A stretch of 52,785 nt of DNA from a virus. Its lineage: Duplodnaviria; Caudoviricetes. The stretch lies in the IMG/VR virus record IMGVR_UViG_3300046006_001177, positions 1 to 52,785 of that record, one strand, 5' to 3'. The notes below the pieces were generated by a model, which was given only the letters and a program-made list of their open reading frames with translations, ran no database searches and was not told where the DNA came from. The position numbers and the translations under genes are program-made. The number at the start of each line of letters is the position of its first letter. Position 1 is the first letter of the stretch. Positions 25,558-31,679 of the stretch are shown here, in pieces.

Positions 25558-26181
25558 ATGAGCATCATCACGGAGAAGATTGTTTTAACCGTTGAGCTGG
25601 CCTCGTTCGTGGCAGTCACCAAACACGCGAAGGATGAGCTGGTCAACCAATTTTATTTAACCCTGCACCAGATGGGCAGGAGGCACGATTTCTTAGTCGG
25701 CATAGTGAGCTGGGAGGGCGGGCCAAAGGTAGCGCCTGTCATCGAACCGCTGTGGGAAGAAGTGAAGAAGCCCAAGCTAGTCAGGGCTACCAAAAATCTA
25801 TCCCTTGCAGAATACATACAAGAGAAACGTCTGGCGGCTGGTCTATCGCAGGTGAAGCTGGGCAGAGTGATGGGCATGTCAGATTCATGCGTCAGTCTTT
25901 GGGAGTCTGGCAAAGCCGCCCCTATCCGCTCCAACCTGTCAAAGATTGCAAAGGCGCTCAATTGTTCCAAGAACCACCTTAACAAGCTCTGGCTTAAAGA
26001 AATGAATGACAGAAAATTATCCAAGGGGATAGCCAATGAAGTTGACCAACAAGCACAACCTGCCGCAGACATTCGTGAACGTGATACAGCGGCCGACGTA
26101 CAGCCGTGGCAGCAGCGAGATATCCGTCACGGAGATTCTTTCGCCACCGCAAATAGTTCAATTACGACGACGACATTCTGA
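25558..26181 (+). CDS. XRE/Cro-family HTH regulator with N-terminal extension
   Basis: I...R...GLSQ..L...MG.S...VSLWE.G...P....L.KIA.AL; GGGAG RBS; C-terminal tail overlaps the next gene. Confidence 0.8.
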   Translation: MSIITEKIVLTVELASFVAVTKHAKDELVNQFYLTLHQMGRRHDFLVGIVSWEGGPKVAPVIEPLWEEVKKPKLVRATKNLSLAEYIQEKRLAAGLSQVKLGRVMGMSDSCVSLWESGKAAPIRSNLSKIAKALNCSKNHLNKLWLKEMNDRKLSKGIANEVDQQAQPAADIRERDTAADVQPWQQRDIRHGDSFATANSSITTTTF

Positions 26182-26914
26182 CCAGATCGAAGTAGACGCA
26201 GCAGATCAGGTCTGGTCTCTGTTCGGGTCAGCAGTCCACAACATCCTGCAACATGGCAAGGATGACAACCATGTCGTGGAAGAACGGCTGTTCACGCAGT
26301 TCAACAACTGGAGCATCAGCGGCCAGATTGACTTGCAGGAATACCAGTCTGACGGCAGCGTAGTCATCAGCGACTACAAGGTCACCTCTGCGTGGGCAGT
26401 ACAGCAGGAGAAGACCGAATGGATAGACCAGCTGAACATCTACGCATGGCTGGTCGAGCGTGTGAAGTCTGTGCCTGTTACTGGTCTGAAGATCGTCGGC
26501 ATCGTGCGGGATTGGAGCCGTAGAGAAGCGGCAAACAAAGAGACCTACCCGCAAGCACCGGTGGTGGTAATTGACATCCCGCTGTGGGAAGGACTTGTAC
26601 GCGAGAACTACATTCGTGACCGGCTGAACATGCACAACGAGGCGAACTTCTCGGCCGTCAGCGGTGAGATGCCAGCGTGTACGTCAGAGGAAATGTGGGA
26701 GAAGCCCACGACTTACGCAGTCATGCGCGAGTTTGGCAAGCGGGCAAAGAAAGTATTTCTGTTTAAGCAGGAGGCCGAAGCGTACCTGGCCGAGCAGAAA
26801 GGTACGCACTTCATTGAAACCCGCGAGGGCGGCAGGACGCGCTGTGAATCTTTCTGTCAGGTCGCCCCATTTTGTGAGCAGTACAAAACCTACCGTAAGG
26901 AGAATGACAAATGA
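26036..26914 (+). CDS. PD-(D/E)XK Cas4-like exonuclease (recombination module)
   Basis: G.AVH..L, E.RL, SGQID, DYK.T, QLNIY and C..FC....FC motifs. Confidence 0.82.
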   Translation: MKLTNKHNLPQTFVNVIQRPTYSRGSSEISVTEILSPPQIVQLRRRHSDQIEVDAADQVWSLFGSAVHNILQHGKDDNHVVEERLFTQFNNWSISGQIDLQEYQSDGSVVISDYKVTSAWAVQQEKTEWIDQLNIYAWLVERVKSVPVTGLKIVGIVRDWSRREAANKETYPQAPVVVIDIPLWEGLVRENYIRDRLNMHNEANFSAVSGEMPACTSEEMWEKPTTYAVMREFGKRAKKVFLFKQEAEAYLAEQKGTHFIETREGGRTRCESFCQVAPFCEQYKTYRKENDK

Positions 26915-27060
26915 AATATCTGATCGCTATCTGGGCACTCGCCTCCGCATCACTGGCCTACGCAGGCTGCACATCGAACAGCTTCTGTGACAACCAAGGC
27001 CGCTGCACTTTCTGCACGACCTGCTGCTACGGCGGTTCCTGCCATACCACTTGCAGCTAA
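26911..27060 (+). CDS. 49-aa secreted cysteine-rich peptide (8 Cys)
   Basis: Hand translation MKYLIAIWALASASLAYAGCTSNSFCDNQGRCTFCTTCCYGGSCHTTCS; AAGGAG RBS; ATGA overlap; AYA signal-peptidase site. Confidence 0.75.
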   Translation: MKYLIAIWALASASLAYAGCTSNSFCDNQGRCTFCTTCCYGGSCHTTCS

Positions 27061-27080
27061 TAACAATCTAGGGAGAAACA

Positions 27081-27779
27081 ATGAAAGCCATTGCCAGCGC
27101 ACTGGTCAAGGCGCAGCGGGAGTTCGGACCCGCGCTGAAGACCAGTACCAACCCACACTTCCGCAGTAAGTATGCCGATCTGTCGGCCTGCATCGAGGCG
27201 GTGATTGATGCTCTGAACAACAACAACATCTACCTGATGCAGTTAACAGAAGAGCATGAGTCTGGTGTAAAGGTTTCCACTACCTTCATCCATGAGTCAG
27301 GGGAGCAGATCTCCGGCGGCAGTCTGTTCATGCCAGCGTCCAAGCAGGATCCCCAGGGTTTTGGCAGCGCCTTGAGCTATGCCCGCCGTTATAGCCTGAT
27401 GGCAGCCTGCGGCATCGCCCCAGAAGACGACGATGCCAACTCTGCTAGGCCACCTGTCGTTGCGCCGAAGGTCGTAGCAAAACCTCCAGAACCTCCAAAA
27501 CCTACACCCGTTCCACCCAAGCACATCGAAGGCAAGGACAAGGAATGGCAGATCAAAGTATCTGCTGATCCCGGCACCAACTTTGATGACTGGCTTGCTG
27601 TCATTGTGGAGTCGACGGTCACAGCGCTGGACGTTGCTGAGTCTCGGCAGCAGGTGCTAGACATCTGGCGTACCAACATTGACATCTACCAGAAGATTGA
27701 GAAGCTGGATCCAGAAGCCTACAAGGAAATGCTGGCCACCTTCAGCACTTACAAGGGAGCATTCAAAGATGGCGAGTAA
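27081..27779 (+). CDS. erf: ERF-family ssDNA annealing protein
   Basis: ALVKAQ...K...NPHF.SKYA.L, HESGE, PQ.FGSALSYARRYSL.A..GIA.EDDD motifs. Confidence 0.9.
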   Translation: MKAIASALVKAQREFGPALKTSTNPHFRSKYADLSACIEAVIDALNNNNIYLMQLTEEHESGVKVSTTFIHESGEQISGGSLFMPASKQDPQGFGSALSYARRYSLMAACGIAPEDDDANSARPPVVAPKVVAKPPEPPKPTPVPPKHIEGKDKEWQIKVSADPGTNFDDWLAVIVESTVTALDVAESRQQVLDIWRTNIDIYQKIEKLDPEAYKEMLATFSTYKGAFKDGE

Positions 27780-28044
27780 TCCTAACACCGGCAAGCTGAA
27801 CTACAGCAAGAAGAAGCTTCATCCTAAGTCACCAGACCTGTACGGCGAACTGATACTGGAGCGCCAGTACGTCAAGAGCTTGCTGGAAGCAACAGACGAG
27901 GATGAGCTTCTCATCAAGCTGGACGCGTGGCAGAACGACGGGAACTACGGCACCTACTTCTCTCTCAAGGTCAACACTTGGAAGAAGCCAGAGCAACCCG
28001 CTCCTGCTCCTACTCCCGTTGACGATACGGACGTTCCCTTCTGA
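27769..28044 (+). CDS. putative single-stranded DNA-binding protein
   Basis: Start moved to ATG 27769. G.L...K....PD..G, AW, YFSL.V and acidic DDTDVPF tail. Confidence 0.7.
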   Translation: MASNPNTGKLNYSKKKLHPKSPDLYGELILERQYVKSLLEATDEDELLIKLDAWQNDGNYGTYFSLKVNTWKKPEQPAPAPTPVDDTDVPF

Positions 28045-28052
28045 GGTGAGCC

Positions 28053-28268
28053 ATGCGAGAACAATCAAACGCGCTTATCGACCACCTGCTGGAGCGATTC
28101 AATCTAGGCACAGATGCAGCGTTGGCTAGGATGATGGAGCTTCAGCCGCCGGTCATCTCAAAGATGCGGCACGGCAAGATGTCCCTGACGCCCAACTTCA
28201 TCCTGAAGGTACACGACACGTTTGACATCCCTATCAAAGAGATCAAGAAGATAGCTGATGTCCGCTAA
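28053..28268 (+). CDS. small HTH protein (71 aa)
   Basis: L.TDAALAR.M...PPVISKMRHG; GAGG RBS. Confidence 0.7.
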   Translation: MREQSNALIDHLLERFNLGTDAALARMMELQPPVISKMRHGKMSLTPNFILKVHDTFDIPIKEIKKIADVR

Positions 28269-28575
28269 GTCACCGACGCAGCGCAGTCTTGAGCATCTGC
28301 GGGAGCTGGGCTATCACTGCGAAGTGGTGGAGAAGTGGAACCCGTGGAAGCGTGTACGTCAGGATCTCTGGGGATGGTGTGACATCTTGGCTATCCGCAG
28401 GGATGAAGTGCTAGCCGTGCAGGTAACGGCGGCTGGCGTGGCGGCCAGGATCAAGAAGATCCAGGAGTCGGACACCATCGCCCGTGTCAGAGAAGCAGGC
28501 ATCAGAGTGGAAGTGCATGGCTGGACTAAGCGGGCAAGCGGTAAGTACGTGCTGCGAGTGGAGGATATAAGTTGA
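28258..28575 (+). CDS. PD-(D/E)XK Holliday-junction-resolvase-like nuclease
   Basis: LR..GY....VE......DLWG..DILAI....LAVQVT...VHGW. Confidence 0.7.
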   Translation: MSAKSPTQRSLEHLRELGYHCEVVEKWNPWKRVRQDLWGWCDILAIRRDEVLAVQVTAAGVAARIKKIQESDTIARVREAGIRVEVHGWTKRASGKYVLRVEDIS

Positions 28576-28652
28576 TGGAAACGATCCAGTTTGAGTCGGT
28601 CAAGGTTGGCATGAAGCAGGACAACTCCGGCTACATCCTGACGCTGCGTTGA
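28575..28652 (+). pseudogene. stranded 5' fragment (25 codons) of the 29220..29639 gene
   Basis: METIQFESVKVGMKQDNSGYILTLR-stop versus MSHPQFECVKVSLKQDNSGYILTLRVH at 29220. Confidence 0.85.
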
Positions 28653-28696
28653 CAAAGTACCGTTCGTGTAGCATGATGAAGTCTCGTTAAGGAGGC
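28649..28696 (+). promoter_or_regulatory. promoter and RBS carried with the HNH insert
   Basis: TTGACA (28649-54)-17 bp-CATGAT; AAGGAGG before ATG 28700. Confidence 0.5.
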
Positions 28697-28699
28697 TCT

Positions 28700-29239
28700 A
28701 TGAAATGCTACATCTGCGGTGACAAAACCATCTCTTTACATGGAAGAAAAAACGTTTGTGAAAAACACAAAAGGTTTTTGCAAATGCAAAGCTCAGCAAA
28801 GCACGACAAGAAATATGCGCCATCGCTTTATGAGATTGAACGCCTAGTCCCCAAAGACATGGTTTGCCCAGATTGTGGAAAACAAATGCACTGGATAGAC
28901 AATTCAAATAGATCAGCATCAGCAGTTCTTCAGCATTACCGCGATGGATCGCTTGGTATCGTTTGCCATGCTTGTAACACCAAACACGGAATGATGCCGG
29001 GAGATTCTTATAGAGATGTTCCTGTTGGTTACAAATTGTGCAGGTCATGCAAAACAATTAAGCCGTTAGATATGTTCTACAAACGGTCTGATTCAAAAAT
29101 TCAGTATCCGATGAGCAAATGCAAAGTTTGTAATCTTGAGGCGCACCAAGAGTGGAGGAGAAAAAATCCAGAAAAATACAAAGCAACAAACAAGAAGCAC
29201 AACGACAGAAGGAAAGCGAATGTCACATCCACAGTTTGA
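28700..29239 (+). mobile_element. free-standing HNH/EndoVII-like homing endonuclease (179 aa)
   Basis: CPDC...LQH...G.VCHACN..HG His-Me finger plus KLCRSCK.IKP...F...CKVC zinc domain; visibly AT-richer than flanks. Confidence 0.75.
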
Positions 29240-29639
29240 GTGCGTAAAGGTTTCGCTGAAACAAGATAACAGCGGATACATCTTGACCCTCAGAGTACAT
29301 CCAGACGAGTTAGACGAACAGATTTTGCGCGACTTTGTCGGCAGCCGGTACATGACTGTCATGGTCAGGCTGAACGAAGAAGAGCGCCCGATGAACAGGG
29401 AGGCGGAGCTGGCCAAGGACATGGTGCGTGTGTCTGGAATGCTGTGCCGAGATCCTGACTTCTGGCAGTTCTTGCAGGAGTCTGGGGAGATCATTGAGAA
29501 ATCAGATAAGGAAGCAACAGAATGGTTAAAGAGATACCTGAAGGTGGAAAGCCGCGCCGACATTTCAAAAAGCCAGGAGGCGGTGGAGAAGATGCTGGGG
29601 ATAAAGCGAGAGTTCGCATCTTGGAAAGCTCGAGAATGA
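29220..29639 (+). CDS. conserved hypothetical protein (139 aa)
   Basis: Start moved to ATG 29220; GMLCRDP.FW.FL...A..WL...L.V.SRA motifs. Confidence 0.75.
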   Translation: MSHPQFECVKVSLKQDNSGYILTLRVHPDELDEQILRDFVGSRYMTVMVRLNEEERPMNREAELAKDMVRVSGMLCRDPDFWQFLQESGEIIEKSDKEATEWLKRYLKVESRADISKSQEAVEKMLGIKREFASWKARE

Positions 29640-29908
29640 TTCCTTACTCCGTCTACCTGACGGAAGAGACTCACGCCGCGCTGAAGGAGAAAGCCCGCAG
29701 CAGGCAGGCCAGCAAGATCGTGCGGGATGCCATCACTATGATCTTAGAAGGTGGAGATCAGTACGCTAGCGGCTACAAGCAAGCGCTGCGGGACGTGATG
29801 GATTTGATCCACAAGGATGATCTAGCGGGCAAGATCGCCGTAGACGACCGCAGGATTGCAGATCATCTCATCGACCAGATAGAGGGGTTGATTGATGACC
29901 AGAGATGA
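29636..29908 (+). CDS. ribbon-helix-helix-like protein (90 aa)
   Basis: Start moved to ATG 29636; YSVYL.EE....LK..A.....S..VR.AI. Confidence 0.65.
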   Translation: MIPYSVYLTEETHAALKEKARSRQASKIVRDAITMILEGGDQYASGYKQALRDVMDLIHKDDLAGKIAVDDRRIADHLIDQIEGLIDDQR

Positions 29909-30095
29909 CATTGTTAAATGGGCGGCAGAAACCGGATTGGGATCGACACAATACATTTCTGAGAGCCAATGGAGAAGCCTCCATGCGTTTGCTGAACTAG
30001 CTGCGGCCTATGAGCGAGAGGAATGCGCCAAAGTGTGTGATGCGCGTGATGCTCTCTACTGTGCGTTTGCTATCCGCGAAAGGGGTGCGCCATGA
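29895..30095 (+). CDS. hypothetical protein, ERExCA family
   Basis: MTRDDI..WA...G...FA.L.AA.EREECAKVCD...CA.AIR.RG. Confidence 0.7.
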   Translation: MTRDDIVKWAAETGLGSTQYISESQWRSLHAFAELAAAYEREECAKVCDARDALYCAFAIRERGAP

Positions 30096-30337
30096 TCACA
30101 CTAACCCGCGAGGAAGCGCAGCAGGTGCTGGATGCGTTGCAATGCGCTACACCGCCGACGTTCAGCGCAAAGATAGTAGAGGATTGGCAGAATGCAGTCG
30201 AATTTCTCCGCGCCCGACTTGCGCAGCCTGAACGCGAATGGCAGGGGCTAACGGCAAAAGACTTGGCTGAAATACCACCGAGTTGTTACGAAGGCGCTAT
30301 CTGGGCAGATGCTAGGTTGAAGGAGAAGAACACATGA
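30092..30337 (+). CDS. hypothetical protein, REWQGLT...LKEKN family
   Basis: ORF track 81 aa; ATGA overlaps. Confidence 0.7.
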   Translation: MITLTREEAQQVLDALQCATPPTFSAKIVEDWQNAVEFLRARLAQPEREWQGLTAKDLAEIPPSCYEGAIWADARLKEKNT

Positions 30338-30507
30338 AAACTAAACAAGAAATCAAAGACGAAATCATTGAACTGTATGGTGCTACTCAAGCCTTGAGCG
30401 ATGCAATGAACATACTTCACGCGCAGCGCATGGAGAAGAGCAAAGCAATGATGGCCTTAAATCAGATGCTAAAAGACATGGATGATGACGAGGAGGAAAA
30501 CACATGA
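30334..30507 (+). CDS. hypothetical helical protein (57 aa)
   Basis: Hand translation MKTKQEIKDEIIELYGATQAL...DDDEEENT; ATGA overlaps on both sides. Confidence 0.65.
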   Translation: MKTKQEIKDEIIELYGATQALSDAMNILHAQRMEKSKAMMALNQMLKDMDDDEEENT

Positions 30508-30674
30508 GCGAGTGCCCGCATGGTTTGTTCGACGTATGCTGTACTAACTACGAAAAATGCACACTTGGGCCGCCCAAGCGCGAATGGCAGGGGCTGACGG
30601 ATGAGGAAAGAGAAGAGGCTACTGGCTGGTCTGTTGAGCATATTGAAGCCAAGCTGAAGGAGAAGAACGGATGA
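30504..30674 (+). CDS. hypothetical protein, REWQGLT...LKEKN family (56 aa)
   Basis: Hand translation MSECPHGLFDVCC...KREWQGLTDEE...IEAKLKEKNG. Confidence 0.65.
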   Translation: MSECPHGLFDVCCTNYEKCTLGPPKREWQGLTDEEREEATGWSVEHIEAKLKEKNG

Positions 30675-30922
30675 AAGCATTTCCAATAACCAATGAGGTT
30701 GACTACAACAACGGCATGGACTTGCGGGATTACTTCGCAGCGAAGGCGATGCCGTTAGCGATGAAGTGGGTAGAACATAACTACAGCCAAGTATTGCATG
30801 GCAATGACTGGATGTGGGATGAGAAAGGGGATGAGGAAGAAGATGAGGACGATGCAACAGAAATTGCAGGCATTGCTTACCATATAGCAGATGCCATGAT
30901 GAAGGCGAGATCAAATGATTGA
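30671..30922 (+). CDS. conserved phage protein, AFP...GMxLRDYFAAKAM family
   Basis: KAFP, GMDLRDYFAAKAM, AY.IADAMMKAR. Confidence 0.8.
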   Translation: MKAFPITNEVDYNNGMDLRDYFAAKAMPLAMKWVEHNYSQVLHGNDWMWDEKGDEEEDEDDATEIAGIAYHIADAMMKARSND

Positions 30923-31679
30923 TGGCAAGCCCACCATCATGATTGGCACACCTGCCTACGGCGGTGCCATGTTCATGGAGTACGTCGACAGCCTAGTTCG
31001 GAACCTGTCTTTCCTAGAGCGGGAAGGGATAAAGACGCGCTGGCAGTTCATGAACAAAGAGGCGCTGATCACCCGCGCGCGCAACGAGATCGCCCGATAC
31101 TTCTTGGATGAGACACAGGATGACTACCTGATGTTCATAGATGCCGATATCTGGTTTCCCACCGACGGTATCTACCGGCTGCTCCAGCACAAGAAGGATG
31201 TGGTCTGCGGTATCTACCCGAAGAAGTTTCTATTCTGGGATCGTATCCGCAAGGCCGCGCTGCGCGGGGAGAAGGACATCGACAAGTTCGGCTGCTCGTA
31301 TGTGTTGAACGCGGTGAACGATCACGGCGACCCAGACAAGGTGCCGCTGGACGAGGACGGGCTGGTAGAAGTCCTGCACGGCGGCACAGGATTCATGATG
31401 ATCCACAGGAATGTACTGAAGGCGATGCGGTTCAAGGTACCCACCTACCGCACCAGCCTGATCCAAGATAATGGCCAGTTCTTAGCCCCGCTCACGCGAG
31501 AGTTCTTCGGCACCAGCATCACCGAACTCGGATTGCTGTTGTCAGAAGACTATCACTTCTGTGAGTTGTGGAAGAAGGAGGGTGGCAAAATATACGCCGA
31601 CCCCACCATTGAGTTACGCCACGTAGGCCAGCATGTCTACGCGGGTGATCTCATGCGGGCAGGCAGAAACAATACTTAG
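30915..31679 (+). CDS. GT-A fold glycosyltransferase, paralog 1 (254 aa)
   Basis: IGTPAYGG, LITRARN, MFIDADI (DxD), CGIYPKK, GTGFMMI, SEDYHFC, L.HVG. Confidence 0.8.
   Translation: MIDGKPTIMIGTPAYGGAMFMEYVDSLVRNLSFLEREGIKTRWQFMNKEALITRARNEIARYFLDETQDDYLMFIDADIWFPTDGIYRLLQHKKDVVCGIYPKKFLFWDRIRKAALRGEKDIDKFGCSYVLNAVNDHGDPDKVPLDEDGLVEVLHGGTGFMMIHRNVLKAMRFKVPTYRTSLIQDNGQFLAPLTREFFGTSITELGLLLSEDYHFCELWKKEGGKIYADPTIELRHVGQHVYAGDLMRAGRNNT

Follow-up and report, generated by a model that had tools for sequence, protein, structure and literature searches.

How does a nuclease gene come to occupy the start of another phage gene, with a second copy of that gene's first codons on its other side? The question is raised by a locus of four open reading frames (ORFs), all on the + strand, in a 52.8 kb IMG/VR virus record assigned to the Caudoviricetes (IMGVR_UViG_3300046006_001177, positions 1 to 52,785; hereafter the window, that is, the whole stretch of DNA analyzed). 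The first, encoding 105 amino acids (aa; 28258..28575), ends in a TGA that overlaps the ATG of the second at 28575 (TGATG), and this second ORF, the stub (28575..28652), consists of 25 codons and a TGA. Then follow a 179-aa nuclease gene (28700..29239) and a complete gene encoding 139 aa, termed gene X here (29220-29639), which begins 20 nucleotides (nt) inside the nuclease ORF and has its ribosome-binding site and start codon in the last codons of the nuclease gene. A preliminary description, made from the letters alone, had noted the 25-codon stub, the TGATG coupling, an HNH-type gene and the overlapping new start, and all of their coordinates are confirmed. From comparisons of this locus with related sequences we consider it quite probable that it holds a free-standing homing-endonuclease cassette, at and overlapping the start of gene X, that spreads by replacing the 5' end of that gene.

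The relationship between the two gene starts is evident: over 25 codons the stub and the start of gene X are identical at 49/75 nt and 19/25 residues (76%), and the duplication is non-random both by a tblastn search within the record (E = 1.2e-6) and by local alignment (16 standard deviations over 100 shuffles). Across KQDNSGYILTLR, a run of 12 residues identical in both copies, 9 of the 12 codons are spelled differently, and direct reading thus agrees with the earlier count. The TGA of the stub sits within a TTGACA at 28649-28654, at the edge of the insert as had been described, and this hexamer opens a promoter-like site (28649..28677; TTGACA-17-CATGAT, 10/12 matches) in a leader that is conserved in related cassettes. 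The base composition likewise sets the insert apart, with a GC content of 0.36-0.46 across 28650-29300 vs 0.50-0.63 in the flanks, and GC at third codon positions of 0.42 in the nuclease ORF (which had rightly been called AT-rich), 0.56 in the downstream codons 1-25, 0.84 in the stub and 0.66 in the rest of gene X. Low GC, private differences and the joints of metagenomic contigs delimit an imported segment at 28650..29325 that comprises the leader, the nuclease gene and donor-type codons 1-36 of gene X (29220..29325), followed by the resident-type remainder of gene X, namely codons 37-139 and the stop (29326..29639).

As the insert lies inside a coding region, one might suppose it to be a self-splicing intron or an intein-like element, with the stub as the true first exon of gene X. 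We regard this as hardly credible: no Rfam family was matched at E <= 1 over 28200-29700, the stub has a stop and gene X a complete start of its own, so that a spliced product would contain 25 residues twice, and the nuclease ORF occupies a different frame. The latter ORF has, in addition to the promoter-like site, its own start codon and ribosome-binding site (AAGGAGG, 5 nt 5' of the ATG). The nuclease gene therefore has the appearance of a free-standing gene with its own expression signals, outside any intron or intein, and the earlier view of the element as splicing-free is upheld.

Which of the two starts is native can be judged from relatives. Relatives of gene X were found on twenty viral contigs, one of which (L003) is identical to the window; the nuclease gene is present only in L003 and absent from the other 19, and gene X is intact in relatives, in line with the earlier contention that the insertion lies inside a coding region. 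The stub matches the relatives' gene start at up to 65/75 nt (L013, with 65/75 nt and 25/25 residues), whereas the downstream copy matches it at 46-52/75 nt. Against 17 relatives the stub has no private base (0/63), whereas gene X has nine private differences within its nt 23-106 (84 nt), the last at 29325, and none in nt 107-313. Further, the proteins of empty, that is cassette-free, alleles (P0108-P0116) have a stub-like start and native residues 26-37 and match the protein of the window from residue 38 nearly to its end; hence gene X of the window is a chimera of about 36 foreign codons and a resident body (its C part 99% identical to P0108, its N part only 73%), and the stub is displaced resident DNA. 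The preliminary description had proposed that empty alleles would resemble the stub joined directly to native codons, and this is what we find: relatives match the stub and not the downstream copy, and metagenomic contigs join the stub to native codons 26-36. Its account of what is replaced was right for the 25 duplicated codons and too short beyond them, as the foreign tract reaches codon 36 and alters further residues.

Two copies of 25 codons flanking a nuclease gene could also result from duplication of the gene X 5' end in place, followed by divergence and a later insertion of the nuclease gene between the copies. This history is contradicted by the one-sided private differences, by the different base composition of the downstream copy and by the occurrence of the same module on other backbones, and we give it next to no credence.

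The divergence between the copies had earlier been interpreted as synonymous recoding of a replacement N-terminus supplied by the element. That the cassette supplies such an N-terminus holds, in that it is imported and found on other backbones; it is, however, a diverged homologue rather than a synonymously recoded copy, with residue differences from the stub at 6/25 of all codons and at 3/21 aligned positions from the QFE motif onward. Nor is the spelling special: 10/18 identical-residue codons are respelled between stub and downstream copy, which is above the mean for pairs of nuclease-free relatives (33%) but within their maximum (65%), and the downstream copy compared with those relatives gives a mean of 58%. 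The donor was a more distant, AT-richer lineage for which ordinary divergence suffices without any dedicated recoding. One may speculate that survival bias contributes, cassettes between near-identical repeats being prone to loss by recombination. Several nuclease-free relatives (among L004-L010) have a donor-like S/D-H-P-Q-F-E start and L-D-E-R at residues 31-34, features that may have been left behind by earlier conversion or by the loss of a cassette. In another (L020:3968-4040) gene X appears to have lost one nt from a run of G near codon 12 and so acquires an in-frame stop; this may be a genuine lesion in the 5' region that is targeted, or else an artifact of assembly.

The imported gene start is not confined to the window. 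A window-type N-terminal module occurs in 6/121 gene X proteins, on at least four different backbones; each of these proteins has a C part 95-100% identical to that of a module-less backbone, the N part of which is only 73-79% identical, and among themselves the module-bearing proteins are 88-100% identical in the N part and 78-98% in the C part (P0106, P0132, P0136, P0140 and P0161 being known here from protein sequences alone). The crossovers, placed by eye in the alignment, fall at residues 35-40. These patterns indicate that the working N-terminus came in with the cassette and that the module is mobile between backbones. The shared right boundary, in conjunction with stubs that end at codons 25 and 32-34 (see below), suggests that the break in the recipient likely falls at roughly codons 25-37.

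Metagenomic data provide both arrangements of the locus. The region 28300-29700 is present (at least 0.72 of sampled words) in 17 DNA runs labelled as lake, freshwater or aquatic metagenomes from 2019-2025, one of which may be the source sample, and is represented in the listed RNA runs by only 0.05-0.12 of sampled words. As many lake-water runs hold a near-identical filled arrangement, the cassette-carrying phage lineage is widespread in freshwater. When contigs of four of the runs (X2, X7, X10 and X16) were placed on 28100-29900, the filled arrangement was recovered in X7 and in parts of X2, X10 and X16 (records 21, 15, 5 and 26, with 0-8 differences). Empty-allele contigs were found in three of the four (X2, X10 and X16); they depart from the window at 28642-28649 and rejoin it at 29316-29347, and the four joints with listed in-between letters contain 22-38 letters encoding native codons 26-36. 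One X16 contig is a P0110-type allele, and three others from that run follow the window as far as 28649, beyond which their unaligned tails encode native codons 26-32. In the same lakes one finds the empty alleles, the foreign tract and the stub, which together provide a record of the event dated by sequence.

To place the nuclease among its relatives we scanned viral contigs with the single protein, which returned only the identical contig and three weak partial matches, and with alignments, which returned 92 further nuclease loci (L028-L119). A clade defined by at least 55% identity comprises 27 loci including the window, two of which (L028 and L058) are identical. Gene X overlaps or abuts the nuclease stop in 25/25 clade loci with downstream sequence, though it is only 32-60% identical there, while among 66 more distant nuclease loci it lies downstream in none and upstream in two. 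The clade nucleases have conserved C-terminal endings because their ORFs terminate in a TGA formed by the F-E/D codons of gene X, and their leader is conserved with a -35-like motif, an extended -10 and a ribosome-binding site. Stubs are found at 11 of the 24 non-redundant clade loci with upstream sequence and range from 5 to 34 codons; the remaining 13 have none, and in seven of these a gene with an acidic D-x-P-F tail abuts the leader. Long stubs occur at five loci, namely the window (25 codons), L060 (34), L067 (32), L071 (32) and L073 (34), that of L073 being separated from the cassette downstream of it by about 620 nt containing other small ORFs; at six loci (L031, L063, L069, L055, L061 and L065) the stub is short, with 5-11 codons. 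In the four adjacent pairs of long stub and gene X the DNA is 67-71% identical and 52-61% of identical-residue codons are spelled differently. We recognize about nine junction classes among the 11 stub-bearing loci. The nuclease tree cannot be used to count insertions, as only 3/23 of its inner branches are well supported, and it omits L073 and L095, which are too short.

This distribution bears on the proposal of a nuclease gene that is simply a moron or a free-standing endonuclease of the usual intergenic kind, with the stub a one-off rearrangement and the divergent gene start a product of ordinary phage mosaicism. The slot upstream of gene X is indeed a general hot spot with many unrelated inserts, and the codon-spelling divergence of the two copies is inside the range among relatives. 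However, a coincidence of this kind would have to account for a nuclease clade joined to gene X in every locus with downstream sequence, at gene X identities down to 32%, for stubs that recur in several lineages, for a foreign tract that ends narrowly at residues 35-40 on at least four backbones, and for empty-allele contigs that rejoin at 29316-29347. We consider it improbable.

The nuclease protein has 103 homologues at E <= 0.001, several of which have in the database an N-terminal extension that reads through the cassette leader. In an alignment of 38 homologues C56, C59, H79, C89, C92, N93 and H96 are invariant, and a second cysteine-rich module follows; the two CxxC pairs (C56/C59 and C89/C92) around H79/N93/H96 fit the structural-zinc pattern of HNH/beta-beta-alpha-metal nucleases. 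We take H79, N93 and H96 to be the catalytic residues, after the pattern of Endo VII and PacI. In structural comparisons with an AlphaFold model (mean predicted local distance difference test score, pLDDT, 87.5), the HNH restriction enzyme PacI (3m7k) was the only entry with a Z of at least 5, at a middling Z of 6.7 (root-mean-square deviation 3.5 over 100 aligned residues, spanning 1-107 of the model); residues 107-150 of the model aligned with the Hpy99I zinc ribbon (Z 4.9) and other HNH nucleases gave Z 2.6-3.6. The PHROG families endonuclease, endonuclease VII and HNH endonuclease match residues 105-172 only (E 3e-8 to 9e-5). The protein is thus probably composed of an N-terminal PacI/Endo VII-like beta-beta-alpha-metal domain and a C-terminal zinc-ribbon DNA-binding module.

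A further feature of the cassettes is a 12-nt motif, GAY-RAR-RTN-NCN, present in 23/24 leaders (twice in 10) vs 13/983 control windows; the copies in the window are at 28651-28662 and 28675-28686. It varies mostly at every third base, as in coding sequence, and reads like the acidic D-x-V/I-P tail of the cassette-abutting gene and also like gene X codons 29-32. A derivation of the motif as a relic of the acidic C-terminal tail of the upstream gene was set aside, as it also matches gene X codons 29-32 in L060 and L067. The motif might be left over from a flank, or might serve as a patch of homology or as a binding site.

How would such a cassette move? Three parts would travel together as the mobile unit: the leader with its promoter-like site, the gene for the HNH-type nuclease, and roughly 36 codons from the start of the donor's gene X. 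Upon mixed infection, the enzyme would cut a nuclease-free gene X within about codons 25-37, and at the right-hand end the break would be repaired by homologous recombination with the donor gene X, with a crossover just past codon 36; the product would be a chimeric gene X with a variant, presumably uncuttable, site. The slot between the 105-aa gene and gene X is hypervariable in relatives (L004-L022), where it measures anything from 2 to 908 bp and its contents are unrelated, and, as this neighborhood offers no homology, the left end would be joined illegitimately to the cassette leader. The recipient's first 25 codons would survive only as a dead remnant, the stub, whose stop codon would fall in the TTGACA of the leader by happenstance. 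The sequences themselves show the architecture, the foreign source of the module, the empty alleles and the recurrence in further phages; cleavage, immunity and the repair pathway are steps that we infer. Among the inserts seen in the upstream slot are small ORFs and a queuine tRNA-ribosyltransferase-like ORF in L007; the slot of L019 holds a 179-aa ORF that matches no PHROG family and has what we judge by eye to be a GIY-YIG-like motif. Repair with homology on one side and a microhomology-joined end on the other is described for T4 intron homing in the available text of one report (PMC2988022).

In an alternative version of this mechanism, drawn by analogy, the stub would be no dead remnant but a working left homology arm upstream of the nuclease in the donor: the 5' part of the cut gene would pair with it, the element could enter any genome that has gene X, irrespective of the upstream sequence, and the recipient's 5' end would become the new stub at each event. 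The accessible portion of the report on the yeast WHO elements proposes such a mechanism for their insertion at the FBA1 3' end (PMC7282813). In the phage, the variable gaps upstream would make the stub the sole dependable left homology, stubs are common, and all five long ones are intact, in frame and resident-type, as expected were they renewed at each homing event. On the other hand, more than half of the cassettes (13/24) lack a stub, and L073, the closest nuclease relative with upstream sequence (84% over 88 residues, with a near-identical leader), has none adjacent to the cassette; stub lengths vary by lineage from 5 to 34 codons, and the 25-codon junction of the window is found at no second locus except the identical L003. 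We therefore hold a working stub to be a serious though unlikely contender, and retain illegitimate joining at the left end as the preferred route of the cassette.

Several observations weigh against this picture of a gene-end-replacing homing cassette. The six short stubs coincide with an overlap of the upstream gene's stop and the first codons of gene X, and may merely keep the upstream gene whole. Three of their loci (L031, L063 and L069) form one clade in the nuclease tree, albeit with support of 87/81, below the 95/80 star threshold, and the stubs therefore represent fewer than 11 independent events. The long stubs of L060, L067 and L071 end where gene X codons 29-32 resemble the leader motif (in L071 by position only, the pattern itself being unmatched), so short homology rather than a cut site may set these junctions. 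As regards the nuclease, no Pfam HNH or Endonuclease_7 match was obtained at E <= 0.1 and no Foldseek match at E <= 0.001, the best being PacI at E 0.23, and the PacI likeness is itself of only middling strength. Finally, contig depth in the lake runs is crude and sums relatives, and the summed values for the cassette bins (28649-29319) vs the stub bin, 27.8 vs 394 in X2, 13.3 vs 289 in X16 and about 20 vs 97 in X10, with X7 flat at 5.4, can be read only as agreeing with a patchy element.

The two resident genes of the locus provided few functional clues. For gene X there was no match in Pfam or NCBIfam, and the PHROG families that it matched are all of unknown function; comparison of its predicted fold (pLDDT 81) with the PDB returned nothing but generic helical structures (best Z 5.9), and with BFVD nothing but uncharacterized phage proteins. 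The 105-aa gene, which is 72-94% identical to the gene preceding gene X in 17 related loci, had been called a resolvase gene in the preliminary description, an assignment that is not confirmed, as no match was found among Pfam, PHROG, NCBIfam or PDB sequence families. Against 50,697 phage records, megablast of 27000-31000 gave no match, and tblastn of gene X gave only relatives of <60% identity. Further upstream, at 27769-28044, a 91-aa ORF with no PHROG or NCBIfam match ends in an acidic D-D-T-D-V-P-F tail, which to us resembles the C-terminal tip of bacterial single-stranded-DNA-binding (SSB) proteins; an exonuclease (26036-26914) and an Erf-like annealing protein (27081-27779) are encoded in the same recombination module.

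The closest parallels to the cassette come from eukaryotes. WHO elements of Torulaspora and Lachancea yeasts home into FBA1, and allele-specific cleavage has been shown for them (Coughlan et al. 2020, PMC7282813). In the available text of that report they share with the cassette a nuclease gene beside its target, replacement of the recipient's gene end by that of the donor with the old end left beyond the nuclease gene, and a target gene whose two parts have discordant histories; they differ in being eukaryotic and nuclear, with an intein-derived nuclease acting at a 3' end, whereas the cassette is a phage element with an HNH-type nuclease that would act at a 5' end. In the mORF gene hybrids of fungal mitochondria, reported for atp6 of Allomyces macrogynus and for atp6, atp9, cox2 and nad3 of Glomus (Beaudet et al. 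2013, PMC3630166), there is likewise a duplicated gene end of which the native copy is near relatives and the inserted copy foreign. The copies of the Glomus atp6 mORF are given in the accessible portion of that paper as 63.5% identical in nt and 91% in aa, compared to 65% and 76% for the cassette. As described there, mORFs are mitochondrial, encode LAGLIDADG or GIY-YIG nucleases, affect the C-terminal end and are often fused in frame with the host gene. Both WHO elements and mORFs, as far as these texts go, replace 3' ends, whereas the cassette replaces a 5' end including promoter, ribosome-binding site and start codon.

Among phages, intronless homing in T-even phages resembles the cassette in having a free-standing nuclease gene and co-conversion of the donor flank after a cut in the neighboring gene; in the accounts available it requires that resection reach homology to either side of the nuclease gene, and a duplicated gene end is not mentioned, whereas the cassette has no left homology and a stub. 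The one-sided repair of T4 intron homing is like the proposed origin of the stub in having homology on one side and the other junction at microhomology, but in the text at hand it concerns an engineered system with an intron (PMC2988022), in contrast to the natural, recurrent architecture seen here. F-CphI, a free-standing homing endonuclease with an Endo VII motif from cyanophage S-PM2 (PMC6083498), is by its description, like the cassette nuclease, of the Endo VII/beta-beta-alpha-metal kind outside classical HNH models; its catalytic domain is C-terminal rather than N-terminal, and the available part of the report makes no mention of gene-end replacement. In the literature searched, with subscription journals and supplementary files outside reach, we found no phage description of the cassette layout. 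The gene-end replacement design appears to be one already known from yeast and fungal mitochondria, of which the cassette would be a phage 5'-end version.

The gene adjacent to gene X offers a comparable case in a related phage (L016:3258-3778), where a different HNH gene (PHROG 1492, E 5e-39) lies just 3' of the 105-aa gene. Two copies of the last 15 codons of the 105-aa gene can be seen: the working gene terminates in an AT-rich variant, while the native copy is attached in frame, further downstream, to the end of the HNH ORF and is 43/48 nt identical to L017 and L019 and 27/48 to the variant. This locus is a mirror-image, 3'-end form of the cassette design at a neighboring gene.

If the cassette is correctly understood, a selfish nuclease gene can settle in a phage gene that is apparently needed with the help of neither intron nor intein, because it brings along a substitute for whatever it displaces. 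The 5' end of a gene would then evolve as a separate mobile module, which confounds gene phylogenies and can mislead gene callers. The family would also provide a clean test of the WHO design in phages, as it offers one target gene, many backbones and few recurring junctions. More tentatively, and with considerable doubt, we raise the possibility of a widespread and as yet undescribed phage class of 'end-swapping' homing elements, each combining a nuclease gene with a resistant copy of the target's end (in the present case with promoter, ribosome-binding site and start codon) and using the stub as the far homology arm. If this were true, such an element would be able to invade any genome with the target gene, whatever its neighbors, and the at least 25 loci described here would constitute a natural test system.

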